IMG/VR virus record: IMGVR_UViG_2974720863_000001
Coordinates: 6,495 to 70,494 of that record
Source of the DNA: a virus
Taxonomy: Duplodnaviria > Caudoviricetes
Reading direction: 5' to 3' (one strand)
Length of the DNA: 64,000 bases
How positions within the stretch are numbered: the stretch's first letter is position 1; each line of letters begins with the position of its first letter. Below, in pieces: positions 2,280-62,266 of this stretch. The position numbers and the translations under genes are program-made. The notes under the pieces were generated by a model that saw only the letters and a list, made by a program, of their open reading frames with translations, did not search any database and was not told the DNA's origin.

Positions 2280-4943
2280 ATGGCAACAATAGAAGACTTG
2301 GCAAATCAGGTAGGGGAACTTACTGATGCCACAACAGACCTATTAACGGAAGTTAATGGACAAAAAGGAAGGCTAGAGAATTTAGCAGATGGTGCACAAG
2401 ATAGTGCTAATGACGCTCAATCCCACGCCAATGCCTCGGCAGGAAGTGCAATCGATTCTAGCAACTACGCTAATGATTCAGCAGGTAGCGCACAACAGTC
2501 TGCAACCAGTGCCGCAGAAGCTAAAACGTACCGTGACCAAGCAGAAGAAATCTCTGGTTTGGACACTGTAGAAGAAGCAGTTGATTTAGCACTAGATGCT
2601 CGACACTTTGGCGTATTGAGTGAAGCAGAGGCTGAGGCTATCCGCGCAGACAATAATGAACAGTTTGCGGCTAGCGGTTTTGTGCATATGGGCTTAGCCA
2701 GAGAGGATGGTGGCTCAATGATTCGCATTAACGAGGGGGCATGGTCAAGAATAAATGAAGATTTTCCAGATCAGCTCGCTTTAGGCTATTCACAAACTGA
2801 TACAGGTCGTGTAGGTAACTCTAAAACAGAGCAGGCAAGAACCATTATTGCAGGGTGTGTATCCACTATACAGACTAACGCTTATGGTGGATACGGGTAT
2901 CATACAGTCAAATTCCCCGAAGCACCAAACGGCACAGTAACCTATGACTCTGCCACAGGTGTTATCACTGACTTTACCAAGGATGTTGATCCTAAGTATG
3001 GCGATGTAGCTGCTGATGTTAATGAAGCTGTTGCAAGGGCTTTTGAAGGCGAAGTTAAGAATGGTGATTTTAGGTTTGGTGATAATGGGGATTGGAATGT
3101 TGGCGGAAACACTCCACCAACCTTGACTACTGATGGTGCATACTTCTCCGCAATAGACGGAACTATAGTTCCTGAGTTTAGCTCCATAATTGGAGAGGCT
3201 TATGAGGTTGAGGTTAATGTTGTACCGGATACCCCTACTGCGGGGAATCTTGGTTCACTGTCCTACAATAGTGGAGTAAGAATTGGCTATCTGGTGGAAG
3301 GTATAAACAAGATTACCTACACTCACGACGCATTACAAACGAGCACCGACCTATACCTACAATCTTGGGTAGCTGGTTTAACCATCTCAAACGTATCCAT
3401 CCGCAAAGTCACCAACGAAGTAGTAACAGAACGTGTAGACATGTGGGGATTTGAGCAATGGCATGAAGAAGTAACTGATGGTGAAGTATTTGATTGTGTC
3501 CAGTCATTAGCTACTACATTTGGTGATACCGATGTACCTACTGTTTTATCTAAACGTCCATTAAGTTACTTTCAAGTGTATGACGGTCAGTTTGAAGACC
3601 CTAGTGCCATCAATGACCAATACCGATGTGTTGATTGGAATACCATTACTGACGTACAGAAAGTGAAGGTAGCTGCTTACCTGAAAGAGAAACTGTTTGT
3701 AGGTGAGAATGGTAATCTGGTTAATGTGCGTATTCGTCAACGTACTATTGCAGGTGCAGGTAATGGGGATTGGTATTCTACAAATAGTACCGCAACTGGG
3801 AGAATGCAAGTAACTCCTCATATAGACTCTCGACTAGCCCCAAGAGGTGCAAGAGATGCTTCTAATGATTATCACATAGGATTTGCAAATGATTGTTTTG
3901 AAGGTGATACAACTTCTGTTGGTGTTTGGAAACTAGTGGTATCTACTCAAACAATCGATGTAGCATACAAAAGCGAATGCTACTTCCTAGTATGTGGTAC
4001 TGTTCCAAGATTGAACCAAGGTGCTTATCATCCTAGGTTTAATGAAATGGGTGCCGATGGCTTTACAACTGGTGATGGACAGAGGCGTGCATACTGGTAC
4101 GAGGCTGATCTGATGAATACACCTACGGCACCTCGGGACTGCTTTGTGGCAGGGTCTGGCGGATACCCAAGACCAGCAGATACGTTTCGATATGGACATG
4201 GGTTTATTTCAAGTGGTGGTTCAGGTAGACCAGACGGTCGTTTCTACGATGCCATTTACGCAGGTGGCGTAGGCGGTTGCATCGATATGCGCTTATCTGC
4301 TCATGATGCTTCTAGTACTGAGAAAGCTTCTGAGGTACGTGCTAGTGTTGAGAATGGTACTTATCGTGGTATAGAAGATCTGACTAAAACTTATGTATTA
4401 GGTTTGGGTGATGGTGCGTATTTCTATTGCTACGGGACCGGTACGCCTATCAGACCTAATGGTGATAACTCCCCTCAACTATCAGGAGGTGTGGCTAATT
4501 GGTTAGGTGCAACGTCTACTGACACTACTTACATGCTTCAGGGTGAAAACCGTACTACTCAAGACTGGTTAGCACAAGGGTTTCATTGTTACTTGAAAGG
4601 GACTGGCGGGAATGAAGCGGCAGATGCAACAGAAACTACTCAAACCACAGAGTATTTCTTCAGGATATCTGGGACAACTTCTGGCGATCTGATGCACCTT
4701 ACTCCAATGGAGGGCTACCCTGTTAGGGGTGGTACTAATGGAACTCGATTAATCCTCAATAACTGCACACTTACATTTACTGTGAATAGTTGGCAAGGGG
4801 ATTCTTACGGAATGGACACTAAGAAATCCGACATCTCAGTATCAGGTGAGTTCACTCAACAAACACTGTATGGAGATCCGTCAACTTTACTTCAAGCACT
4901 CCCTGATGGATGGTATGGAGACTGGGGTGGGTTAATTAGTTAA
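2280..4943 (+). CDS. Tail fibre / receptor-binding protein, N-terminal part
   Basis: 887 aa; N-terminal coiled-coil anchor then Gly/aromatic-rich beta domains; FPEAPNGTVTYD and VPRLNQGAYHP motifs recalled from marine vibriophage fibres. Confidence 0.6.
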   Translation: MATIEDLANQVGELTDATTDLLTEVNGQKGRLENLADGAQDSANDAQSHANASAGSAIDSSNYANDSAGSAQQSATSAAEAKTYRDQAEEISGLDTVEEAVDLALDARHFGVLSEAEAEAIRADNNEQFAASGFVHMGLAREDGGSMIRINEGAWSRINEDFPDQLALGYSQTDTGRVGNSKTEQARTIIAGCVSTIQTNAYGGYGYHTVKFPEAPNGTVTYDSATGVITDFTKDVDPKYGDVAADVNEAVARAFEGEVKNGDFRFGDNGDWNVGGNTPPTLTTDGAYFSAIDGTIVPEFSSIIGEAYEVEVNVVPDTPTAGNLGSLSYNSGVRIGYLVEGINKITYTHDALQTSTDLYLQSWVAGLTISNVSIRKVTNEVVTERVDMWGFEQWHEEVTDGEVFDCVQSLATTFGDTDVPTVLSKRPLSYFQVYDGQFEDPSAINDQYRCVDWNTITDVQKVKVAAYLKEKLFVGENGNLVNVRIRQRTIAGAGNGDWYSTNSTATGRMQVTPHIDSRLAPRGARDASNDYHIGFANDCFEGDTTSVGVWKLVVSTQTIDVAYKSECYFLVCGTVPRLNQGAYHPRFNEMGADGFTTGDGQRRAYWYEADLMNTPTAPRDCFVAGSGGYPRPADTFRYGHGFISSGGSGRPDGRFYDAIYAGGVGGCIDMRLSAHDASSTEKASEVRASVENGTYRGIEDLTKTYVLGLGDGAYFYCYGTGTPIRPNGDNSPQLSGGVANWLGATSTDTTYMLQGENRTTQDWLAQGFHCYLKGTGGNEAADATETTQTTEYFFRISGTTSGDLMHLTPMEGYPVRGGTNGTRLILNNCTLTFTVNSWQGDSYGMDTKKSDISVSGEFTQQTLYGDPSTLLQALPDGWYGDWGGLIS

Positions 4944-5657: not shown

Positions 5658-6328
5658 TGGCTACAGTTTATTTAGATATTCCTAGAAAATCTCTAGGGCA
5701 GTTACAAGTAATAAGATCGACAGATGCAGGGGAAACATGGGCAACTGTTACAGGCACGTTGGACAGCGTTAAGAATCAATTAGCAGTAGATGCGGAAGAC
5801 ACAGATATTGTAATGCTATCGAGCACAGCATTCGCCAAGCAAACCACAGAGTCTGTTAATAGCCCTGTATTGCATGGTGGAGCAGGCTTGGGGGGCGTGT
5901 ATTCTACTTCATTCCATGAACATGGATATGGTGCTTGTTTGCAGGAATCTCTAGTAGGGAAAGTCCCTACAGGGAATATTGCTTTAGCTTTCTGGGAAAA
6001 TATGTTGACAGGTTTCAAAATATACCCCGATTGGCGTATGCAGGGGTACTCCTCAGTGGCCCCTACACACACGCCTATTCAACTGGCGGGAGTCTCTTCA
6101 CCTGCTGTTAAGTCACTAAGTTACCAAGTGGCTAACAATAACCAAGCATCTATGAACTTCGCTTTCAATGAGTTGGTTTGGGATACGGATGTTGGTGATT
6201 GGGGTGATGATTCCAAAGTTTATATTGCTGATGGTGTAACTACAGGTACAGACTTAAACGGCAATACTCGTTTAATCGGTACACATACTCTTGCACTACC
6301 TTATGGTTGGGTGCGTAACACAATTTAA
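5657..6328 (+). CDS. Tail fibre C-terminal domain as a separate ORF (probably the distal half of 2280..4943)
   Basis: TAATG overlap with the HNH stop; beta-rich; ends ..GTHTLALPYGW, recalled as a typical ending of these fibres. Confidence 0.5.
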   Translation: MATVYLDIPRKSLGQLQVIRSTDAGETWATVTGTLDSVKNQLAVDAEDTDIVMLSSTAFAKQTTESVNSPVLHGGAGLGGVYSTSFHEHGYGACLQESLVGKVPTGNIALAFWENMLTGFKIYPDWRMQGYSSVAPTHTPIQLAGVSSPAVKSLSYQVANNNQASMNFAFNELVWDTDVGDWGDDSKVYIADGVTTGTDLNGNTRLIGTHTLALPYGWVRNTI

Positions 6329-7209
6329 TGGAGATTGGGGTGGTAACACCCCTCTATAAAAATATGTTTAAAGAAACACAAGGTTACGTGAAAGACTTGC
6401 CTGAAGTAATGCAACCTTTCTACCTAGACGAATTACGTTCTGAGCCTTTGCTTGATGACAATGGTGAGCAGGTACTGCAGGAAGAGGAATATGAATACTT
6501 AGATGAGAATGGAGACACTCAAACTGGTGTTCGTATGGTTCCTGTTTTCCATGATGTTAACTACGTAGTAGAGAAACCTCGCTATGATCTGAAGTCTTGG
6601 GACTATGTAGAAAAGGCTAAGAACTACGACGCTAAGATGTATGGTATCCACAAAGCCTGTGAAGCTGAGCAATGGGCTTACCATGATGAATACGTTGAGT
6701 GGTATTTCAGACCTGAACCAAAACGTGCTCAAGATGAGAATGGTCAGTTCATCGGTGATGATCCAGAGACCCCTGAGAATGAGGCATGGGAGAATGGTTT
6801 CACGCCTGAGATGTATGCTGCACAACCTGAACCAATTAATACCTCTACCGAACCTGAACCAATTAATACCTCTACCGAACCTGAACCAATTATTGAAGAA
6901 CTTCATCAAGAGTTAGCTAAACAGACTCGTGACGAGGCAGTAAAGGAGAACATTTCAATGTTTGGCGGAGAATGGCAGGTACGGGATAAGGATATGATTA
7001 ATGTCCAAGATGCCATTGATGAAGCTGAGTTCTTAGGGTTACCTCCTGAAGCTACTGAACCATGGATTCTTGCGGATAACTCTATCCGTCCTACGACTGC
7101 CCTAGAGCTAAAGCAAATCAAGTCTGCTCGTGCTCAACATAAGTCATCCGTATTTGCTGCCTATGCCATATGGAGGGAGGGGGATAAGCTCACTCCATTC
7201 ATTATATGA
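6328..7209 (+). CDS. Tail fibre assembly / DUF4376-like protein
   Basis: C-terminal WQVRDKD...WILADNS motif; follows the fibre genes; acidic. Confidence 0.5.
   Translation: MEIGVVTPLYKNMFKETQGYVKDLPEVMQPFYLDELRSEPLLDDNGEQVLQEEEYEYLDENGDTQTGVRMVPVFHDVNYVVEKPRYDLKSWDYVEKAKNYDAKMYGIHKACEAEQWAYHDEYVEWYFRPEPKRAQDENGQFIGDDPETPENEAWENGFTPEMYAAQPEPINTSTEPEPINTSTEPEPIIEELHQELAKQTRDEAVKENISMFGGEWQVRDKDMINVQDAIDEAEFLGLPPEATEPWILADNSIRPTTALELKQIKSARAQHKSSVFAAYAIWREGDKLTPFII
6824..6891 (+). repeat. In-frame 27-bp tandem repeat, about 2.5 copies (PEPINTSTE)
   Basis: AACCTGAACCAATTAATACCTCTACCG at 6824-6850 and 6851-6877, partial copy at 6878-6891. Confidence 0.95.
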
Positions 7210-7311
7210 AGTGGATAGTTATCGTAGGTTTAGTGTTAGGTTTCATCTTCTTAGGAGGATGGGCTTTCATAGAAGCCATCAGAGATGTACATTACACATG
7301 ATATAAACTAA

Positions 7312-7332
7312 GTGCCCTTCGGGGCACTATTT
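7312..7332 (+). terminator. Rho-independent terminator
   Basis: GTGCCC-TTCG-GGGCAC followed by TATTT. Confidence 0.7.
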
Positions 7333-7542
7333 AACTTCAGATAGTACTTTTTTGTATACCTTTTAAGGTGTTATAGTAATAACACCTTAACACGCTAGGT
7401 ATAACAATATGGAAATAAATGGCTTATTAACCTCTGCATTAGAGTGCGCAGTTACTGGCTTCTTTGCAGCTCTGTTCTTCATTATCTTTGATGTACTCAT
7501 CACACCCTCTGATGATTGTAAAGTTGTAGGAGGAGATGATTA

Positions 7543-8367
7543 ATGACTAAGAAAATTGATAAAACTCTAAGGCGTGAAAAACGCAGAGAGAAAAAACAAC
7601 GCCAACATCAAGATTCCACTCCTAAAGCACAAGCCCCTAAACCTAAGCAATTCGATGTTATTCAGACATCTACCCATAAAGCATATCAACACGCCTTATT
7701 CTCAAGAGACCGTGCACCTGTACTTTGTCTTGGTTCAGCAGGCACCGGTAAAACCTTTGGTGCTATCAAAGCAGCAATGGTTCAATTAGAAGCCAAGCAT
7801 ATTAAACGCATCATTGTCCTACGTCCCCAAGAAACTTTTGCAGCTAAAGCAGGTTATTTACCCGGCACTGAACGTGAGAAACTTGAACCATGGATTCGTC
7901 CTATTCACCAGAATCTGAAGAAGCTAGGCTACTCACAATCCGCTATTGAACTCATGGAGAAGAACGAAGTCCTCTGCTACTACGACCTTGGTATGGTTCA
8001 GGGTTTAACCTTTGACCAAGCCATGATTATTATTGATGAACCTCAGAACATGACATACGAACAAATCGAGGGTGTACTCACTCGTGAAGGTATGTGGTCA
8101 CGTACTGTGTTCTGTGGAGATGTCCGTCAGACTTCACCTAAATTCAATAACTCAGGGTTACCTAGATTTATAGACATGGTTCAGGTTATGAACTCAGACA
8201 TACATTACATAGAAATGACCCGTGATGACGTGGTACGCTCTCCTAGATGCAAACAGTGGATTGCAGACTTTGAAGATTACGAGGCAGGCATTCGTCCTAA
8301 CGATTATAAAGATATGATGGATGAACCAAAACCTGACCCGTTATCGTTGTACGATGAAGTGGCTTAG
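7543..8367 (+). CDS. phoH: PhoH-family ATPase
   Basis: GSAGTGKT Walker A, GYLPGT.REKL.PW, IIIDEPQN, CGDVRQ, DDVVRS. Confidence 0.9.
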   Translation: MTKKIDKTLRREKRREKKQRQHQDSTPKAQAPKPKQFDVIQTSTHKAYQHALFSRDRAPVLCLGSAGTGKTFGAIKAAMVQLEAKHIKRIIVLRPQETFAAKAGYLPGTEREKLEPWIRPIHQNLKKLGYSQSAIELMEKNEVLCYYDLGMVQGLTFDQAMIIIDEPQNMTYEQIEGVLTREGMWSRTVFCGDVRQTSPKFNNSGLPRFIDMVQVMNSDIHYIEMTRDDVVRSPRCKQWIADFEDYEAGIRPNDYKDMMDEPKPDPLSLYDEVA

Positions 8368-19938: not shown

Positions 19939-20451
19939 ATGACAGATACAATTGAAACAAATGAACTAGATTCACTGAAAGAACGTGCTGACCTAATGGG
20001 TATTAAATACTCACCTAACATTGGTGTTGAAAAGCTACGTGAAAAAGTGAATGCGAAGCTTGAAACCCCTACTGAAGCGGTAGCAGGTGGTCCGTCAAAC
20101 AAGCATCAAGAACTACGTAAGCAAGCTACTAAGCTTATTCGTTGTGTTATCACTAACCTGAACCCTTCTAAGAAGGACTCAGAAGGCGAATTCGTTCGTA
20201 CAGGTAACCGAGTGGTTAAAACCATCTCCCGCTTCGTACCATTCGAGCAAGAGACTCACGTAGAGAACGCTATCCTTAACCTACTTAAAGAACGTCAGTA
20301 CTGCGTTGTGGTGCATGAGAAAGGTATTGATGGCAAGAAGATTCCGGTGCGTAAGATGCGTAAAGAGTTTCAAATTGAAATGCTTGAACCACTAACTCCC
20401 CAAGAGTTGGCAGAATTGAAGGAATCTCAGATTAAGCGTAACAGTATTTAA
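19939..20451 (+). CDS. N4 gp55-like protein
   Basis: LK.RADLMGIKYSPNIG.EKLREKVNA; LEPLT.QEL.EL. Confidence 0.75.
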   Translation: MTDTIETNELDSLKERADLMGIKYSPNIGVEKLREKVNAKLETPTEAVAGGPSNKHQELRKQATKLIRCVITNLNPSKKDSEGEFVRTGNRVVKTISRFVPFEQETHVENAILNLLKERQYCVVVHEKGIDGKKIPVRKMRKEFQIEMLEPLTPQELAELKESQIKRNSI

Positions 20452-20474
20452 TCTGAATCAAATCAACGTATACT

Positions 20475-20499
20475 AAGGAGCTGAGAGGCTCCTTTTTTT
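20475..20499 (+). terminator. Rho-independent terminator
   Basis: AAGGAGC-TGAGAG-GCTCCTT followed by a T tract. Confidence 0.7.
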
Positions 20500-20512
20500 A
20501 TAGGTATAGAAT

Positions 20513-21337
20513 ATGGCAATAACGAAAAGACAGTTAACAGGCGGTGAGAAGACGGGGGCAGGACTCTATGATGAGCTAATGCGAACCAGTGAATCTCACC
20601 TCAAGCATGAATTCAAAGCAGGACGAATCGTTGGTAAGGAGTACACCAATGCCTATATGGGCATGATGCAGGCAAACCTGCAGACCGCACTTCAATTTGT
20701 ACTCTCCCGTGAACTTACTAATGAACAGGTCAAGCTCGCCAAAGACCAACTCCTTCAATCCAATAAACAGAATGAGTTATTGGAGCTACAGAAGGCTCAG
20801 TTGGAACTGGCGAACCAGACAGCACAATACAACCTTGATATCACCTTACCTAAGCAGACTGAGATACTGACCTCTCAGGTCACTCAGGCAGCCAAACAGA
20901 TTGAAGTACTTACTGCACAGATTTCACAAGTGAATGCTCAGACTGAATTGGTAGGTAAACAAGAGACTCTTGTGGATGAGCAAATCAAGTCGGAAGGTAC
21001 TAAGACTACCAATCCTACTGGTGGTACTGCTAAGGCTGCTTACGATAAGACTATGGCTGAGATTGATGTACTGGCTCAGAAGAAGATTACTGAACAGAAG
21101 CAAACCACAGGTACTCATACAGATACTGGTGGCCTAGTAGGTTACGAGATGAATCTTAAGTACACTCAGAAGGAATCTTTCCTACGTGATGCTGAGCAGA
21201 AAGCCTCTAAGATTTACTCAGATATCTTCTCTGTAATGTACTCAACAGAAGCTGAGGGCATGGATAATGATGCATGGGGATTCAGTTCTTCTAACTCTAA
21301 TGCAACGCTTAACAAGCTACTCAACGGAGTAGAATAA
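20513..21337 (+). CDS. Virion structural protein (N4 gp54-like)
   Basis: LTGG...G.G..D.LM, EFKAGRI.G.EY..AY, QKESF.RDAE.KA.K. Confidence 0.7.
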   Translation: MAITKRQLTGGEKTGAGLYDELMRTSESHLKHEFKAGRIVGKEYTNAYMGMMQANLQTALQFVLSRELTNEQVKLAKDQLLQSNKQNELLELQKAQLELANQTAQYNLDITLPKQTEILTSQVTQAAKQIEVLTAQISQVNAQTELVGKQETLVDEQIKSEGTKTTNPTGGTAKAAYDKTMAEIDVLAQKKITEQKQTTGTHTDTGGLVGYEMNLKYTQKESFLRDAEQKASKIYSDIFSVMYSTEAEGMDNDAWGFSSSNSNATLNKLLNGVE

Positions 21338-54703: not shown

Positions 54704-55233
54704 TTCACCTCTTCCTTTTCAATATCCCAGTAGTCGCTACATGAGTCAGTAAACTTCGCATCAACCACTTCCTTGGCTTTCTCGTAGGTAGAGAATACCC
54801 CAATCACTTGATTACCTTCGTAATGTACACCGAAGGTTAAAACGTATACGTAGGTGTTATCTGATACGTCTTCCTGTACTAGTGATTCTTTTAGTTTTAC
54901 TCTGCTTGGTTCCTGATATAGCGAGGGCAAGTGAGGTCGCCAAAAGTATTCACCTTCTTCCTCCCAGTCGATTTCACCGCAGGGAGATATCTCAGTGTAT
55001 TTCTGTAGCGCATGATAATAGGTAATCTCAACCATAATGTCATCAGGGTAGGGTTGTTTATAGTCCCCATCTCGCCATGCAAAACTATGCACACTCAAGT
55101 CACCATGACAATTTTGGTTTAGTACCGTAACATCAATACCATCGCCTACCTTGTACCCACCAAAGTCACCGACTAGCTCATCTCCCTTCATAAAGACAAT
55201 GCCTAGGTCTCTCGCTTGCTTAACGGTAATCAT
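54700..55233 (-). CDS. Hypothetical two-domain protein
   Basis: 177 aa; C-terminal YVLT.G..YEG..VIGVFST.EKA module. Confidence 0.55.
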   Translation of the reverse strand: MITVKQARDLGIVFMKGDELVGDFGGYKVGDGIDVTVLNQNCHGDLSVHSFAWRDGDYKQPYPDDIMVEITYYHALQKYTEISPCGEIDWEEEGEYFWRPHLPSLYQEPSRVKLKESLVQEDVSDNTYVYVLTFGVHYEGNQVIGVFSTYEKAKEVVDAKFTDSCSDYWDIEKEEVK

Positions 55234-55405
55234 CTCTCAACATCCTTCATCTTTAAGAAGCAAATAGCTATCGCTCGGTACGGGTTTTTGTCTTTAACTA
55301 GAATCGTGTTGAACTCTTCCGCTTGGTGTTGAAGTGTAATGGCTTTATACCCCTCGTACATTACTTTATTAATTTTGTCCCAAACTCTAAATTTAATTTC
55401 TCTAC

Positions 55406-55855
55406 TCATACCTCTACCTCGATTTCGATGAGTTGATCGCCTTTATTCATGGCGTCAGGCTTTTCTGTGTAGGCGCGTGCAAAGTCTCCTTTTGAAGTAA
55501 ACCTAATCCAGCGCTTCTCTTTCTTTGGTTTGATTCGGAGATTTATCTCGGCATCCATAAAGAGGTGGTCAGCAACCCAAGGGTAATCCTCTAGTGGCTC
55601 CATTTCCCCGTAGTTACCACTACCATTGGGCAGGAACTCAAACTCAGCATCACCACCATTCAGCCAGCGCAAACATTGTCCGTCCTCATTGTGTTGAGGT
55701 AGGCAGAGGAAGTACTTAACGTTGTCGTAAAACACCGCACCCCTCTCATCGGGGCTAACCAAGTACCATGCCCCTAAGCTTTTGTAAAATTTAACTAAAT
55801 CCCTATTCTCAGCCTTGGCGATAATCATATCTGCGTGTACGTGTCTATTGCTCAT
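55406..55855 (-). CDS. Hypothetical protein
   Basis: HVHADMI.AKAEN...YFLCLP.H motif. Confidence 0.55.
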   Translation of the reverse strand: MSNRHVHADMIIAKAENRDLVKFYKSLGAWYLVSPDERGAVFYDNVKYFLCLPQHNEDGQCLRWLNGGDAEFEFLPNGSGNYGEMEPLEDYPWVADHLFMDAEINLRIKPKKEKRWIRFTSKGDFARAYTEKPDAMNKGDQLIEIEVEV

Positions 55856-56208
55856 AACTTTAATATTCCTTTCTCTATTGCACGTCTGATGCGGTGCCTC
55901 CACATCTTGCGTTCATCAAAGGTGTCCACATCACACATGGCCAAAGCTGTCTCTTCAATAGAGTTAGTTTGGTTCAATAGTATCTGTGCTAATTCAAGGT
56001 GCTCATCCCACTTATAGGTGTGACGTATAGCATCCTCAAAGGTGCCTTTTACTGGTTCAACATTAAGGTACACATGGCCATTATAAATAATAAAACCTAC
56101 CTTGAGCCAAGCCACCATACGTCTGTAGCTGATGCCCACATAGCGAGCTGCAGCAGCCTTATTGCCATTGCATCGTTCAAGCAACTCTAAGTCGGTCATG
56201 ATGTCCAT
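55852..56208 (-). CDS. Putative HTH protein
   Basis: GNKAAAARYVGISYRRMVAW. Confidence 0.55.
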   Translation of the reverse strand: MDIMTDLELLERCNGNKAAAARYVGISYRRMVAWLKVGFIIYNGHVYLNVEPVKGTFEDAIRHTYKWDEHLELAQILLNQTNSIEETALAMCDVDTFDERKMWRHRIRRAIEKGILKL

Positions 56209-57441: not shown

Positions 57442-57705
57442 TCACTCAATCACCTTAATGGGGATTTGGCCTAACGAGGTCTCTGCTAGACCGGTCAGGA
57501 TATTATCCCCGCCCATTTGCTCAAGGATTTCTTCAGGCTTCACCTGAAGCGTTAGAGCGTTATCAATGATGGTGTACAGGCGATGCATACGAAGGTCTTC
57601 GTGGTCATCATCTTCAGGAGGCATAGCTTCCAGAAGCAGGTACAGCGCATACAAAGGAGAGTCCTTACAGAACTCAGGGATTACGATATCTTTTTTAGCA
57701 GTCAT
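57442..57705 (-). CDS. Hypothetical protein
   Basis: 87 aa, coupled to the upstream gene. Confidence 0.5.
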   Translation of the reverse strand: MTAKKDIVIPEFCKDSPLYALYLLLEAMPPEDDDHEDLRMHRLYTIIDNALTLQVKPEEILEQMGGDNILTGLAETSLGQIPIKVIE

Positions 57706-57907
57706 GGTTTGTTCCTTTCAGTTTATTGGTTATTTCAGTTAATCTGGTATTCAGTGGACAAGTCCCACATACTTGGCAGGGGTATGCTTCAATACCATCT
57801 GTGCAGTCACCTTCTACCCGTACCCGTATGTAGTAGGTACATAAATCCTGTTGCCTTCCCTTAGGAATAGTAGGAGTGTATTTATCCAAGGAGGTTAATC
57901 TACTCAT
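57695..57907 (-). CDS. MSR-array small protein with a CxxC motif
   Basis: MSRLTSL...CQVCGTCPL. Confidence 0.65.
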   Translation of the reverse strand: MSRLTSLDKYTPTIPKGRQQDLCTYYIRVRVEGDCTDGIEAYPCQVCGTCPLNTRLTEITNKLKGTNHDC

Positions 57908-58112
57908 GGTTCAGTACCTCCTTGACCAGTTCCTTTAGGTTATCTTCGTAGTAGATACACCGGAAGCATGCTGCCTCACCACTATCTTGAATTATACGCA
58001 TACACACAGGTTTAAATACATCTGCATCAAGATTCAGTCCCTTGAGTGTACTGGGCGTACAAAGGAACTCTATTGGTGTAGGGTATTTCATTACGGTAGA
58101 TAATCTGCTCAT
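57900..58112 (-). CDS. MSR-array small protein with a CxxC motif
   Basis: Internal start MSRLSTV...ACFRCIY. Confidence 0.6.
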   Translation of the reverse strand: MSRLSTVMKYPTPIEFLCTPSTLKGLNLDADVFKPVCMRIIQDSGEAACFRCIYYEDNLKELVKEVLNHE

Positions 58113-58148
58113 TAGTAAGCCTTTTAGTGTCTTGCTCAGGACGAGCAT

Positions 58149-58397
58149 TCAATCAAAGAGTTCAGCTATGATTTTGGGGAGTTTCACTTTCAATTCAAAT
58201 GTGAGAGTCAGGAATCCCTCCTCCACCTTAGCATCCCCATCTATCTCTATGTGCTCCTTTAGGCCATAAAGAATTGGGTATTTAACAGGATTAATAATCA
58301 TGCCAATGAGTCTCCTTGATTGGTTGCAGAAACTCATGGAAGCCTCCGAAGGAGGCTCTACTCTAGAGACCGAACCAAGGAAATACCTAGATGCCAA
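58149..58397 (-). CDS. Hypothetical protein inside the array, without the MSR start
   Basis: ORF track; true start uncertain. Confidence 0.4.
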   Translation of the reverse strand: MASRYFLGSVSRVEPPSEASMSFCNQSRRLIGMIINPVKYPILYGLKEHIEIDGDAKVEEGFLTLTFELKVKLPKIIAELFD

Positions 58398-58567
58398 TCC
58401 CTCATAGGGCAGGATTTACAGAAGACTGACCTACATGCCCATCCGAAGTAACGGAAAGCTTTGATGTTGGTAAAGGTGTAATATCGGTTCACTGAACAAT
58501 ATTCTACTGAACCAAACCTAGTAATAAGGAAGTTAGTAGAGTTCTTGTATGTTCTTAATCGAGACAT
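58358..58567 (-). CDS. MSR-array small protein with a CxxC motif
   Basis: MSRLRTY...CRSVFCKSCPM. Confidence 0.65.
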   Translation of the reverse strand: MSRLRTYKNSTNFLITRFGSVEYCSVNRYYTFTNIKAFRYFGWACRSVFCKSCPMRDWHLGISLVRSLE

Positions 58568-58752
58568 TTATTATCCCCTCTGACTATCTCCACAAGACGT
58601 ACCCCACTCCAATCTTTTATCCCAAGGGCGGAATACACCTGCCATGGTGTTAGGTTAACGCCGGAGGTACGTATCAAGGTGTAAACGTGGGATTCCATCC
58701 TCCTACCATCTAAGCGAAGGTACTCCTTATGTAAGGTATTTAATCGAGACAT
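58555..58752 (-). CDS. MSR-array small protein
   Basis: Internal start MSRLNTL; ends CLD inside the next start motif. Confidence 0.6.
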   Translation of the reverse strand: MSRLNTLHKEYLRLDGRRMESHVYTLIRTSGVNLTPWQVYSALGIKDWSGVRLVEIVRGDNKCLD

Positions 58753-58952
58753 CGAATTACCCTTATCGGTTGGTTGGTGATATGTTGCATAAGGAATATC
58801 TTCCCTTTTCCAAATAGGCATACAAAGTCATATAAGGAGTCCGTACAAGGAGGGTATCCTATAAGGTATAATGCTTTTCTGGAGATGGTGTACGATGAGG
58901 CAAACGTAGGCATTTTTTCTGCATTTTTTACTATGATGTCTAATCGAGACAT
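58740..58952 (-). CDS. MSR-array small protein
   Basis: MSRLDII...LYLIG.P; paralog of 58940..59152. Confidence 0.65.
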   Translation of the reverse strand: MSRLDIIVKNAEKMPTFASSYTISRKALYLIGYPPCTDSLYDFVCLFGKGKIFLMQHITNQPIRVIRCLD

Positions 58953-59152
58953 TGAAGTATCTCCACATGTCTTTTTAGGAATAGGTCAAAGGTACGTAAT
59001 CGGCTTGAACCAAATACCTTGGTGAATACTATTAAAGGCACTCCCTCATTAGGCCGCCCAATAAGGTAGAGGGATTTCTTAGGAATGTTATGTCCTGCCA
59101 CACGATAAGAAAGCTTCTTAGCCCTCTTACTTAAAGTATTTAGTCTACTCAT
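58940..59152 (-). CDS. MSR-array small protein
   Basis: MSRLNTL...LYLIG.P. Confidence 0.65.
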   Translation of the reverse strand: MSRLNTLSKRAKKLSYRVAGHNIPKKSLYLIGRPNEGVPLIVFTKVFGSSRLRTFDLFLKRHVEILQCLD

Positions 59153-59233
59153 TGGTTCAATTTCCTTTGGTTTTAGGTATGGGTCTTATATGGTAGGGAT
59201 TTAGGTGATTTTTAACTTTTAGTATATGAGTAG

Positions 59234-59437
59234 TTAACTTTCCAAGTTAACTTTAGTTGGTTCAAGTTTAGCAGCAGAATAAGGGCAATAATCACAAGAG
59301 GTGTGTATACATACGTATGCAATTATATCAGACATAGCAGTTAACTTTATTGCGTTTAAATCTCCCATCATAGGAACACCACAAGTATCCTCTACCTGAG
59401 CATTTGTTAACTGGTTCAGCTTATCTATTCTACTCAT
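59234..59437 (-). CDS. MSR-array small protein with a CxxC motif
   Basis: MSRIDKL...CIHTSCDYCPY. Confidence 0.6.
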   Translation of the reverse strand: MSRIDKLNQLTNAQVEDTCGVPMMGDLNAIKLTAMSDIIAYVCIHTSCDYCPYSAAKLEPTKVNLES

Positions 59438-59630
59438 CAGAATCCTCACTTAACTTATTGTCGTATTCAGTAGAGCTAAGCAGAAGGCAAGTTGCACATT
59501 GTCGGGATAAGCGGCATATGATATCTACAGTATCTTTAATAACGTTAGGTAGGTTCTTGGGATAATCCACCCCATACCCATCACACCCTTTCTTTCCCCT
59601 AAAGGATTTCAATGTACCGTATCTACTCAT
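59430..59630 (-). CDS. MSR-array small protein with a CxxC motif
   Basis: MSRYGTL...CRLSRQCATCLL. Confidence 0.6.
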   Translation of the reverse strand: MSRYGTLKSFRGKKGCDGYGVDYPKNLPNVIKDTVDIICRLSRQCATCLLLSSTEYDNKLSEDSDE

Positions 59631-59823
59631 GCTCAAGTCCCTCAAGGATGTTCTTAATGTTAGGGGTATTGTGTTGGTTACCTAAGCAACAGTCAGTACA
59701 GTACCTATGCTTTGCTCCTGACACTGCACTACATATATTATGTACCCCTGTGGCCTTACCCACTCGCTCACAGTGATAAGACTTCCTCTGGGTAGCTCTA
59801 TCTATCTTACTTAATCTACTCAT
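59623..59823 (-). CDS. MSR-array small protein with a CxxC motif
   Basis: MSRLSKI...YCTDCCLG. Confidence 0.65.
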   Translation of the reverse strand: MSRLSKIDRATQRKSYHCERVGKATGVHNICSAVSGAKHRYCTDCCLGNQHNTPNIKNILEGLEHE

Positions 59824-59833
59824 TGGTTACTCC

Positions 59834-59867
59834 AAAGAAAAAAGAAAGAGACTCCCGAAGGAGCCTC
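59834..59867 (-). terminator. Terminator after the RNAP subunit 2 gene
   Basis: - strand GAGGCTCC-TTCG-GGAGTCTC followed by a T-rich tract. Confidence 0.65.
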
Positions 59868-59873
59868 ACAGGG

Positions 59874-61100
59874 TTAACAGATTTGGTAGTTAGATTGTTG
59901 AATCAACTCAATGATGGCAGGGTCTGTAGGAACATCCCATTCATACTCATCGCCTGTCAACTTCTTAATCACATTCAGGAGCCAAGGGCTCTGATACATT
60001 TCAGCCATAATCTGGTTGTAGTGCATACGCATGTCTTCCACATTCACTGGCGGACACTTGAACTCATCATGTACCGATAACGTCTCAAATGAAGGTAGGG
60101 TCAGTAACCATTCCAGCTTAGCTTTTAACTGGTTCAGGTATTCATCCTTAGCCCCATCTAACGTATCCCAACGTACATTCTCAAGGTTAGCTACAGAGAT
60201 GAAGTTGTTCTCTAGAGCACACTCTTGCAAGCGTAGGAACTCATCATCGTAGTAGTCTGAACCATGTTCCTGATGGTACTCAATCGCTTCCAGAGCACGT
60301 CTCACTTGACCTTCGTCATAGTTGCAACGGTTATCCAGTTCACGTACTACAGTACCATCCCCGCAGTGAGTAACGTTCGCTACCAATGACTTAGTACCTT
60401 CGTCTTTCATTGGAATCAGTGGACGATTCACCTTGTTCATATACGTATACGTATAACCTGATAGAGTCCCCTTAGTCTTCTGGATGCCTTGGCACTCTAA
60501 GTGAGCAACCAGTCCATCCATGGCAGTGAACTCGTGGAATAGTGCCTTTGAGTCCCATGCATTGATGAGTACCTTACGTACCCAATATGCTTCAGGGAAG
60601 GTCTTCTCATACGCTCTCTCGAACTCATCAGATAGTTCTTCACCAAAGACTTGTGTAGGCTTGCTGTCACTACCATAGACATAAGGTACTGTAGCGTTCT
60701 TCACTTCCTTACGCTCTACATCAGAGTCCATGTATTCTTTGATTACAGTGTATCCATCAGGCCTTACACCGGTATCAATAACACCAGTGTTACGCATACC
60801 TGTCTCACAGTGCAACAACACAGACAGCAATGCAGGACCTGAGTTACAAGCATCTAGGCCAATCATATGCCCAGTTGCTACGCCATCTAGGATGTCACGT
60901 ACAGCACAGATAGCCTTAGTGAACAGGGCAGGTGCTTCAGCCTTAGCAATCCATTGGCTCATGTCGTTCTCTTGCTTAATCTCTTCTAGCATTTCACGTC
61001 CAAATGCTAGACGTACAGGGTAAGTTTCTTTGTCTAATCCATACTGTGAAGCCATATCGATTAGGCACCATTGCGCTGGAGAAAAATGTAACATTGTCAT
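59874..61100 (-). CDS. RNA polymerase II subunit 2 (N4 gp16-like, T7-family C-terminal half)
   Basis: IGLDACNSG (motif A), RKEVK.ATVPYVYGS (B), SVHDEF (C). Confidence 0.9.
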   Translation of the reverse strand: MTMLHFSPAQWCLIDMASQYGLDKETYPVRLAFGREMLEEIKQENDMSQWIAKAEAPALFTKAICAVRDILDGVATGHMIGLDACNSGPALLSVLLHCETGMRNTGVIDTGVRPDGYTVIKEYMDSDVERKEVKNATVPYVYGSDSKPTQVFGEELSDEFERAYEKTFPEAYWVRKVLINAWDSKALFHEFTAMDGLVAHLECQGIQKTKGTLSGYTYTYMNKVNRPLIPMKDEGTKSLVANVTHCGDGTVVRELDNRCNYDEGQVRRALEAIEYHQEHGSDYYDDEFLRLQECALENNFISVANLENVRWDTLDGAKDEYLNQLKAKLEWLLTLPSFETLSVHDEFKCPPVNVEDMRMHYNQIMAEMYQSPWLLNVIKKLTGDEYEWDVPTDPAIIELIQQSNYQIC

Positions 61101-61120: not shown

Positions 61121-61294
61121 TTAGTATTTTACTGGTCTGCCTCGCACGAGGGACTGATACACAAGCTGTCTTAAGCGCTTGGTACAGCTTCTAGGCCATT
61201 GCCCTCCGTAAGGGAAGGCTTCTTCATCTTCTTGCTTAGGGCATAATTCGTAGTGGTCTTTGGTGTTATTTAGGTAGGTGGTAAGACGGCTCAT
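61121..61294 (-). CDS. 57-aa MSRL protein between the two RNAP genes (not in ORF track)
   Basis: ATGAGCCGTCTT start 9 nt after the RNAP1 stop; MSRLTTYL...PVKY. Confidence 0.55.
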   Translation of the reverse strand: MSRLTTYLNNTKDHYELCPKQEDEEAFPYGGQWPRSCTKRLRQLVYQSLVRGRPVKY

Positions 61295-61303
61295 GAGTAC
61301 CCC

Positions 61304-62266
61304 TTAGAACTCTGGTTCAATTACAATAACTTTAGCGAAGTCCACCATAGCCTTCTGGTAGTCCCTTCCTTGATAATTCAAGTGGTATGCCTCCACATAG
61401 GTACGGCCGCGGTTGTCTCTACGGTGAGCAAAGTAGAACGGAACATCACCAATAGCATGAAGCTTCTCAGCCATATCTGCATGTAGTGCAAGCCATTCAT
61501 TCTTACGTTCTTGTACCTCGTTCTTGGTTTCTGTCTTAGCAGTCTTCTTGTTGTACTTAGGCGTTGCATCGAAGGCACCTAGCTTACCAGCCAGTACCTG
61601 TCCTGCTATCTCCTTATCCAGCTTGAAAGCAACACGGTTTCTCTTATTCAAGTGAGGTAGGCAGATGTCCTTGTCATGGTGCTTACCCCCCATCAATACT
61701 GACTTCTTGAAGGTACGATACCCAATGCTTGAGTTATTTCTCAGGCGCTTCAGTGGCACTACAGACGGCAAGCTTACTGACTGTACATTCAGTGCCTCAA
61801 GCTCTTCTGGTTCAAGCTCTATCAAGCTATGTAGGTAACTGAACTCTTCACCTTTGTGTATCTCCACTTCAATTAGAGGACAGTACTCTATCACTAGGTT
61901 AACTGCCTTGAGTTGTCGTGAGGTCGTAGAGATGCCTGAGAAGCTCCCTATGACACTTCCTACACCTTGTTGTAGGGTAACTTGGTTTCTGCCTACAACC
62001 GTGGTTAGAAGCTTATACATGAGCTCTGAGACATTACATTGACGTAGATGTGAGTACACTTCTTTCAGATCTTCACGAACTTTGACTTCCCCTAACTTGG
62101 TTTGGTACTCAAAGTCATCGAACATATGTGCATGAAGCTCTAGGTTGGTGGCTGCTTCTTGGATGAGGTTATCGAAGTCTCTTAGGAAGACTTTCATTAG
62201 CTCAACTTGGTTGCGTTTACTGTGTTTAAGCTCTAAAGCTATCTGACGTTTAATCAATTCTTTCAT
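61304..62266 (-). CDS. RNA polymerase II subunit 1 (N4 gp15-like)
   Basis: HRRDNRGRTY...YHLNYQG.DYQKA C-terminal motif. Confidence 0.88.
   Translation of the reverse strand: MKELIKRQIALELKHSKRNQVELMKVFLRDFDNLIQEAATNLELHAHMFDDFEYQTKLGEVKVREDLKEVYSHLRQCNVSELMYKLLTTVVGRNQVTLQQGVGSVIGSFSGISTTSRQLKAVNLVIEYCPLIEVEIHKGEEFSYLHSLIELEPEELEALNVQSVSLPSVVPLKRLRNNSSIGYRTFKKSVLMGGKHHDKDICLPHLNKRNRVAFKLDKEIAGQVLAGKLGAFDATPKYNKKTAKTETKNEVQERKNEWLALHADMAEKLHAIGDVPFYFAHRRDNRGRTYVEAYHLNYQGRDYQKAMVDFAKVIVIEPEF

Follow-up and report, generated by a model that had tools for sequence, protein, structure and literature searches.

A family of small proteins with a common Met-Ser-Arg start, encoded in cassette arrays of N4-like Vibrio phages

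Results

The DNA analysed here, referred to as the window, is a stretch of 64,000 nucleotides (nt) that corresponds to bases 6495–70494 of a 70,494-bp virus assembly (IMG/VR record IMGVR_UViG_2974720863_000001); the remaining 6.5 kb lie outside it. The window is 98.5% identical to Vibrio phage 1.245.O._10N.261.54.C7 (hereafter 1.245.O; Schitoviridae, Pariacacavirus; host Vibrio breoganii), and its source is, on sequence grounds, an N4-like Vibrio phage. We describe an array of nine small genes whose products all begin with Met-Ser-Arg (MSR), together with the wider family to which they belong. All of the genes under discussion are on the minus strand, so that the starts named in an earlier sequence-only reading of this DNA are the high coordinates of each gene.

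The array and its genes

The array genes are numbered here from low to high coordinates, and gene 9 (59623–59823; 66 amino acids (aa), start MSRLSKI, cysteine motif CxxCC) is thus the first of the array. It is followed by gene 8 (59430–59630; 66 aa, MSRYGTL, CxxC), a cassette missing as a whole from 1.245.O, by gene 7 (59234–59437; 67 aa, MSRIDKL), which has the cysteine layout C..C-x4-CxxC-P, and by the paralogues gene 6 (58940–59152; 70 aa, MSRLNTL) and gene 5 (58740–58952; 70 aa, MSRLDII), which form a class marked by LYLIG.P. Gene 4 (58555–58752; 65 aa, MSRLNTL) has no cysteine motif, and its C-terminal Cys-Leu-Asp and stop codon lie within the start of gene 3 (58358–58567; 69 aa, MSRLRTY), another member with the layout C..C-x4-CxxC-P. 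Beyond an embedded gene of a different kind, gene 2 (57900–58112; 70 aa, MSRLSTV, CxxC) ends with a TAG that sits within the start of gene 1 (ATGAGTAG). Gene 1 (57695–57907; 70 aa, MSRLTSL), a Cys-rich member with a C-terminal CxxCxxC-P, is the last gene of this middle-region array, and its 3′ end overlaps a conserved gene for an 87-aa protein.

Directly upstream of the array are the genes for the large (59874–61100) and small (61304–62266) subunits of N4-type RNA polymerase (RNAP) II. A tenth MSR gene (61121–61294; 57 aa, MSRLTTY, codons ATG AGC CGT CTT) lies between these two, and an MSR gene is found in the same place in the Vibrio phages D445 (38% identity) and vB_VhaP_PG11 (PG11).

The sequence-only reading had described nine genes starting MSR(L/I/Y) and placed right after the RNAP genes, and this description held: all nine open reading frames (ORFs) were present, at 65–70 aa and with exactly the N termini listed, and they use the Ser codons AGT, AGC and TCT and the Arg codons AGA and CGA as claimed. 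The late CxxC assigned to six of the nine was also borne out, and the two genes that share LYLIG.P proved to be related (31% identity, E 3e-11). Since the window has 10 ORFs that begin MSR[LIFYMW] and reach 45 aa or more, compared with 0.3 on average (maximum 2) in 200 shuffles, a chance origin is excluded. RefSeq lacks annotation for four of the nine array genes in the sister phage (NC_055736, 3353–3947 and 4425–4625; counterparts of window positions 58358–58952 and 59623–59823), genes 3 and 9 among them, an annotation gap in which small array genes have been overlooked.

The stop codon of the upstream gene falls within the start of six of the nine array genes, which bears out the earlier remark that most starts contain such a stop. 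The overlaps are of two kinds, 8 nt (ATGAGTAG) and 13 nt (ATGTCTCGATTAR), and the upstream protein accordingly ends in x-Glu with the first and in Cys-Leu-Asp with the second.

Genomic layout

Ten further MSR genes were found outside the window, at assembly bases 210–2279, beside divergent late genes. The genome thus has 20 MSR genes among about 95, roughly one fifth of the total and well beyond the nine noted in the sequence-only reading. They are arranged as an immediate-early block, a block heading the middle genes, and a single gene between those for the two RNAP II subunits. The first MSR gene of the left end is preceded, at a distance of about 30 nt, by the hairpin GGGAAC-GTT-GTTCCC (6-bp stem, 3-nt loop; assembly 2300–2330, minus strand), which itself follows TGAACCA. 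We take this hairpin to resemble an N4 virion-RNAP (vRNAP) early promoter. In the window, the middle block is separated from RNAP II by a strong terminator-like hairpin (59848–59867, minus strand) with an 8-bp stem, a UUCG loop and a run of T; it follows the stop codon of the large-subunit gene and lies 25 nt before the ATG of gene 9. PG11 has a similar hairpin with a run of seven T (about 4347–4371) that directly abuts an MSR start.

The MSR genes have the layout of translationally coupled, overlapping genes, with a stop in or near the next start and a purine-rich Shine-Dalgarno peak at −8 to −12. The heptamer TGAACCA/TGGTTCA occurs in 146 copies in 70.5 kb (53 + 93), on both strands and in different frames inside genes, often just upstream of starts; 57907–57913 and 59154–59160 are examples in the window. 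As the heptamer is found near some MSR starts but throughout the genome and on both strands, we rejected a specific link between the two.

Distribution among phages

Family members were gathered by the pattern MSR[LIFYMW], which gave 101 members from four phage lineages; 72 of these come from three isolate genomes, namely the window phage, D445 and PG11. The D445 group of oyster-associated Vibrio phages, whose RNAP II large subunit is 71% identical to that of the window, has 23 members in addition to variants that start MSKL and MSKI. PG11 (large subunit 57% identical) has 29; three further genes there have TTG starts, and MSKL and MGRL occur as variants. In the fourth lineage, the 74-kb metagenome contig NPIF01000926.1 (large subunit 58% identical), the 13.9 kb that were fetched contain 29. 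About half of the small genes in the early and middle regions of MSR-bearing phages carry the motif. The nearest relatives beyond these lineages, D497 (large subunit 43% identical), 1.261.O and pVa5, had no MSR genes in the early and middle regions that were fetched. The RNAP II large subunit has matches in 460 N4-like records; a search of IMG/VR for its relatives found none. A DNA pattern requiring two starts gave no match in IMG/VR and 30 loci in metagenomes, one of which was a true array (NPIF01000926.1), the rest being DNA repeats or chance matches.

Several observations on these relatives stand apart from the family count. In NPIF01000926.1 the gene between the RNAP II subunits (3429–3707, minus strand) has the motif in an internal position (..H-S-R-L-Q-T-L-I..) behind a 19-codon N-terminal extension, and may be an MSR member that lost its ATG. 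In D445 the RNAP II large-subunit gene is interrupted by an HNH endonuclease gene (6614–7129) that lies between its main part (7264–8304) and a 44-codon piece (6197–6331) encoding the conserved C terminus; similar splits occur in 1.261.O and pVco-5. Near the start of the early region, PG11 encodes (20097–20543) a 148-aa HslV-like protein ("proteasome subunit beta") that starts MTTIV, for which no counterpart was seen in the genome of the window phage.

The start motif

Among the 101 members, position 4 was Leu in 83, Ile in 11, and an aromatic residue or Met in 7; positions 5 and 6 were polar (Thr, Asp, Asn or Ser, then Thr, Lys, Ser or Arg) and positions 7 and 8 hydrophobic. This is the pattern typical of the start of an amphipathic helix. 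Variants beyond the search pattern (MSKL, MSKI and MGRL) were rare and conservative, with Lys for Arg or Gly for Ser.

In the 72 members from isolate genomes, Ser2 was encoded by TCN in 39 and by AGY in 33, all six Arg codons were used at position 3, and five Leu codons were used at position 4. The two Ser boxes can be interconverted only by way of another amino acid. The three PG11 members with TTG starts retained Ser-Arg-Leu. Because the Ser, Arg and Leu codons vary, because the TTG-start members keep Ser-Arg-Leu, and because the variants are conservative, there is strong evidence that selection acts on the start peptide. The suggestion made from nine genes, that the peptide rather than the DNA is conserved, therefore extends to the larger set.

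Codon choice within the motif was at the same time far from even. AGA and CGA made up 78% of the Arg3 codons, while the genome favours CGT; YTA made up 81% of the Leu4 codons, and the next base was a purine in 92%. Out of frame, the resulting NGA-YTA-R bias yields TAG and TAA. Upstream genes terminated within codons 1–5 in 55 of the 101 members, and at +1, +5 or +10 in 34 of the 72; these stops account for part of the nucleotide bias of the motif. The bias was much stronger in the 55 overlapped members than in the 46 without overlap. In these 46, the Ser and Arg codon boxes were split about evenly and synonymous sites were nearly free, yet Ser and Arg never changed. Because the bias is stronger with overlap, yet Ser and Arg are invariant without it, the start module is dual-coded, specifying a fixed downstream peptide together with an upstream stop, and the constraint on the peptide is independent of the overlap.

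The frequent upstream stops and the NGA-YTA-R bias, together with cassette crossovers inside the motif (described below) and a bias at Arg3 toward A that persists without overlap, are what would be expected if the motif were a nucleic-acid module, that is, a device for translational coupling or re-initiation that supplies out-of-frame upstream stops and, as a site of microhomology, spreads through recombination, with the peptide as a by-product. However, such a module would not by itself keep Ser at about 1:1 between two unconnected codon boxes, switch Arg between AGR and CGN, hold Ser and Arg constant in 46 non-overlapped members with nearly free synonymous sites, or retain Ser-Arg-Leu behind TTG. 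In addition, many other words, such as ATG-AAT-AAA, give the same stops, and starts of the ATGTCTCGA type lack one of them. The codon data weaken this explanation, which we keep because some bias persists without overlaps; we regard it as improbable.

Another way to read the peptide, and an attractive special case of the handle proposed in the Discussion, is as a hidden N-degron. In the bacterial N-end rule, Arg and Lys are secondary and Leu, Phe, Tyr and Trp primary destabilising residues; for the MSR proteins this is a resemblance only. By analogy, trimming could expose Arg or Lys to Leu/Phe-tRNA-protein transferase, or Leu, Phe, Tyr or Trp to ClpS, and so lead to the joint clearance of all members by ClpAP; clearance by ClpXP through an N-terminal signal would be a variant. 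Position 3 (Arg, or Lys in the near-miss members) and position 4 (Leu, Phe, Tyr or Trp in 89 of 101, Ile or Met in the rest) would suit such a scheme. However, a trimming protease has to be postulated, a basic residue followed by hydrophobic ones is found at any amphipathic helix start, and Ile, which occupies position 4 eleven times, is a poor ClpS ligand. An N-degron is, in our judgement, quite improbable.

The protein bodies

Beyond the motif the proteins have little in common. Their median length is 66 aa, with an interquartile range of 59–70 aa. When the first 8 residues were removed, 65 of 72 members became singletons (BLASTP, E <1e-3), and no homology was detectable between classes, in agreement with the sequence-only reading that the bodies diverge strongly. 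The all-against-all profile comparison that it had proposed gave unrelated classes: hhalign probabilities between truncated subfamily profiles did not exceed 21%, the profiles being shallow and the proteins short.

Searches outside the family found no relatives. None of the 20 members in the genome had a significant match in Pfam or PHROG; among 1.84 billion representative proteins, profile searching recovered only the phage's own proteins and one spurious 573-aa match; a word-indexed search with the family alignment gave five matches, all from MSR-bearing phages or a close Logan contig; and an ESM Atlas search for look-alikes gave no usable match. Ribbon-helix-helix and Rrf2-like N termini were considered and dropped, as neither had profile support.

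Cysteine made up 4.6% of residues in MSR proteins and 0.9% in the long ORFs of the phage. CxxC together with at least four Cys occurred in 32 of the 72 members (about 44%), compared with 9.8 ± 2.6 in shuffles, and was often followed by Pro. Two Cys layouts align in register. These features suggest that the members with four Cys may be small zinc-binding domains; the Pfam scans gave no zinc-finger match. The other bodies lack Cys (14 members have none at all), are rich in Trp and Tyr, or have membrane-like hydrophobic segments, as in one 109-aa member; one member has 174 aa. The enrichment of Cys motifs, the narrow lengths, and the retention of 20–30 copies led us to reject the idea that these are junk "spacer" ORFs that need only to be translated.

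AlphaFold2 was run on two subfamily alignments, structure prediction having been suggested with the array. Both models had an N-terminal helix (residues 3–9 or 3–12), but confidence was low (predicted local distance difference test (pLDDT) scores of 51 and 62), below what a fold search would need.

These properties bear on the main rival to the interpretation developed below, namely that the MSR proteins are one ordinary, fast-diverging paralogue family in which the N-terminal helix is the best-conserved piece of a shared fold, for example a contact with a common target, and not a separable tag. The alignment of Cys-rich members is in register from residue 1 through CxxC, lengths are narrowly distributed, the tandem layout and local paralogue pairs point to duplication, and the models place an N-terminal and a C-terminal helix around a Cys knot. 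Against this, the same start is found on Cys-less classes, on the 109-aa membrane-like member and on the 174-aa member, the truncated profiles are unrelated between classes, and complete conservation of residues 1–3 beside a near-neutral remainder would be unusual for a structural element. We think this explanation rather unlikely, and the strongest of the competing ones.

Cassette turnover

The rate of change was assessed by comparison with 1.245.O. The nine MSR genes shared by the two phages differed by 39 non-synonymous and 8 synonymous changes, a ratio of non-synonymous to synonymous polymorphism per site (pN/pS) of 1.36; the corresponding numbers for RNAP II and the embedded non-MSR gene taken together were 2 and 9 (pN/pS 0.06), significantly different from those of the MSR genes (Fisher p = 9e-5). 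Not one change fell in the first four codons. By this measure, the bodies changed at a near-neutral or faster rate between the sister phages. Divergence followed the cassettes: it was 0.0% in gene 3 (58358–58567), 7.0% in the next gene, gene 4, which is the most diverged cassette and has its changes confined to the body, and 0.0% in the one after; gene 1 diverged by 3.6% at the nucleotide level. Selection on particular cassettes and allelic replacement of entire cassettes would each account for this pattern. The embedded non-MSR gene (58149–58301, minus strand; 50 aa) is identical in 1.245.O and 53% identical in D445 and a Logan contig, and forms an island of purifying selection between fast-changing neighbours. 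Elsewhere in the middle region, positions 55000–55900 of the window are replaced or strongly diverged relative to 1.245.O (6–28% mismatch plus indels), while the flanking genes are >99% identical; this further mosaic patch contains a 59-aa ORF that starts MSRE and is outside the MSR family.

Two differences in gene content between close relatives were mapped to their junctions. The 193 bp at window positions 59429–59621, which correspond to gene 8, are absent from 1.245.O, with the breakpoint in shared ATGAGTAGA; in 1.245.O, ATGAGTAGA joins the upstream flank of gene 8 to the sequence beyond the start of the next gene. In an independent case, a Logan contig close to D445, two adjacent D445 genes are missing, and the junction is a hybrid of both flanking start motifs. 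Because both of these gains or losses break within the motif, the start word is the crossover point, and arrays therefore expand and contract in whole-gene steps. The comparison of array content among related phages, which had been recommended when the array was first noted, thus uncovered whole cassettes gained or lost between close relatives, and the term "expandable", applied at that time, proved apt, with two precise whole-gene events that break in the start motif.

A neighbouring gene

Directly downstream of the array lies the gene for the 87-aa protein (57442–57705, minus strand), which is acidic and has no Pfam or PHROG match. Each of the four lineages with MSR genes has it at the same position (68%, 52% and 42% identity), and it was not found in the three MSR-free relatives D497, 1.261.O and pVa5. 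Because of this co-occurrence and its position, the 87-aa protein is a candidate reader or partner of the MSR family, which we offer only as a lead.

Discussion

The MSR arrays are a real and striking feature of these phages, and their genes constitute a lineage-specific and very fast-evolving family of small proteins. The explanation that we prefer, and to which we give about an even chance, is a composite: an accessory host-interaction repertoire, expressed early and in the middle period, swappable, and provided with an N-terminal handle that is independent of the body. According to this proposal the MSR proteins would be among the first made after infection, from the genome-end block behind the vRNAP-type hairpin and from the other block, which heads the middle genes, and would probably act on the host, either in takeover or in counter-defence. 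The N-terminal peptide would be a handle that works regardless of the body attached to it, and a single host or phage factor would read it, and so dock, process or time the destruction of all members alike. The evidence for a takeover or anti-defence role is circumstantial: the early position, fast evolution, differences in presence and absence, and lack of homologues all fit it. The sequence-only reading had pointed the same way, to diverse effectors with a common N-terminal tag for docking, targeting or degradation, and it is supported in part: the diversity of the bodies and the turnover of cassettes agree with it, while the transferable tag and the effector role are putative.

Several points weigh against the proposal. 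Both of its functional parts are putative: the anti-defence or takeover role is deduced from position and evolutionary behaviour, and the factor that would read the handle is hypothetical. The invariance of Met-Ser-Arg arose partly by construction, as the members were collected by that pattern, and the near-miss variants indicate that the true motif is slightly looser. The third position of the Arg codon is A in 70% of members without overlaps and in about 28% genome-wide, and therefore some selection or homogenisation must act at the nucleic-acid level. The pN/pS of the MSR genes did not differ significantly from 1 (binomial p = 0.27, for 47 substitutions), and those 47 substitutions may have arrived by recombination and not by point mutation. 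The structural models, at the low confidence given above, provide only a short N-terminal helix that might just as well be a normal element of each fold. Extreme divergence of all the bodies from one ancestor must also be allowed for, given profiles so shallow and proteins so short.

A bolder form of the proposal would make Ser-Arg-Leu a transferable address label by which one factor grips more than 20 unrelated early proteins per phage, and would make the dual-coded start/stop word the recombination site for cassette swaps. This we put forward tentatively, as possible but doubtful. If one factor does read the peptide, this would be a novel means by which phages manage a large and changeable set of early proteins, and would provide a short portable tag for Vibrio biology. 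The family also offers more than 100 natural, unrelated small proteins for screening, many of them probably zinc-binding, whose position and evolution are as expected for counter-defence or takeover; the MSR phages belong to the Nahant and oyster collections, which come with large host panels. The cassette junction, in which one short dual-coded word is start, stop and recombination site, bears on how accessory regions diversify in phages.

Among known systems, the closest in design is that of the internal proteins of T4 (IPI, IPII, IPIII and Alt), which counter host defences, are likewise diverse, have only a short N-terminal peptide in common, the capsid-targeting sequence (CTS), and are encoded at a locus that varies between relatives (PMC3012670). 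This formal similarity in layout raises the possibility that the MSR start is a virion-targeting signal and that the MSR proteins are packaged and injected with the DNA. The MSR family does have a shared N-terminal peptide, Met-Ser-Arg-(Leu/Ile/aromatic) with a polar-polar-hydrophobic-hydrophobic bias in 101 proteins. However, the CTS has about 10 residues followed by a prohead-protease site, whereas the MSR motif is shorter (4–8 residues), is unrelated in sequence, and lacks the (L/I)-x-E site, with no conserved Glu two residues past Leu or Ile at positions 4–12. The T4 proteins are packed in the head and number 3–5 per genome, whereas MSR genes number 20–30 and belong to the early and middle regions rather than to the late genes. 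A load of 20–30 cargo proteins would also be implausible for a podovirus whose known cargo is vRNAP and two ejection proteins (PMC13434306). Virion targeting is thus very improbable. Because the protease site is lacking and the expression class is wrong, the MSR family is not a member of the T4 CTS system.

A conserved N-terminal part joined to a hypervariable, Cys-rich remainder, in many genes that evolve at an accelerated rate, is also the plan of prochlorosin-type lanthipeptide precursors and of conotoxin superfamilies. Their leaders, however, run to tens of residues and are recognised by a modifying enzyme of their own or by the secretory pathway, whereas the MSR motif is far shorter and the Cys motif occurs in about 44% of members. 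No modifying enzyme for ribosomally synthesised and post-translationally modified peptides was found in the annotation of the complete PG11 genome or of the early and middle regions of 1.245.O and D445, which comprises replication, transcription and structural proteins and hypotheticals, the last not all profile-scanned. The RxLR motif of oomycetes and the PEXEL motif (RxLxE/Q/D) of Plasmodium are very short N-proximal Arg/Leu motifs carried by hundreds of fast-evolving, unrelated effectors. They follow a signal peptide and serve export from a eukaryotic cell, so that their likeness to the MSR motif is one of logic only.

The literature on PG11, Pariacacavirus, Schitoviridae of vibrios, and N4-like early proteins yielded no description of the MSR family, in accord with the earlier reading, which knew of no system of this kind. 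The early regions of N4, T4 and T7 contain clusters of ORFan genes that are small, packed, translationally coupled, without homologues, subject to fast turnover, and dispensable or host-specific. The MSR arrays resemble these clusters, but the clusters are not known to have an invariant N-terminal peptide or a dual-coded start/stop word that is a recurrent recombination junction. Set beside them, the MSR start looks like a common label, apparently undescribed, on a swappable set of early proteins.

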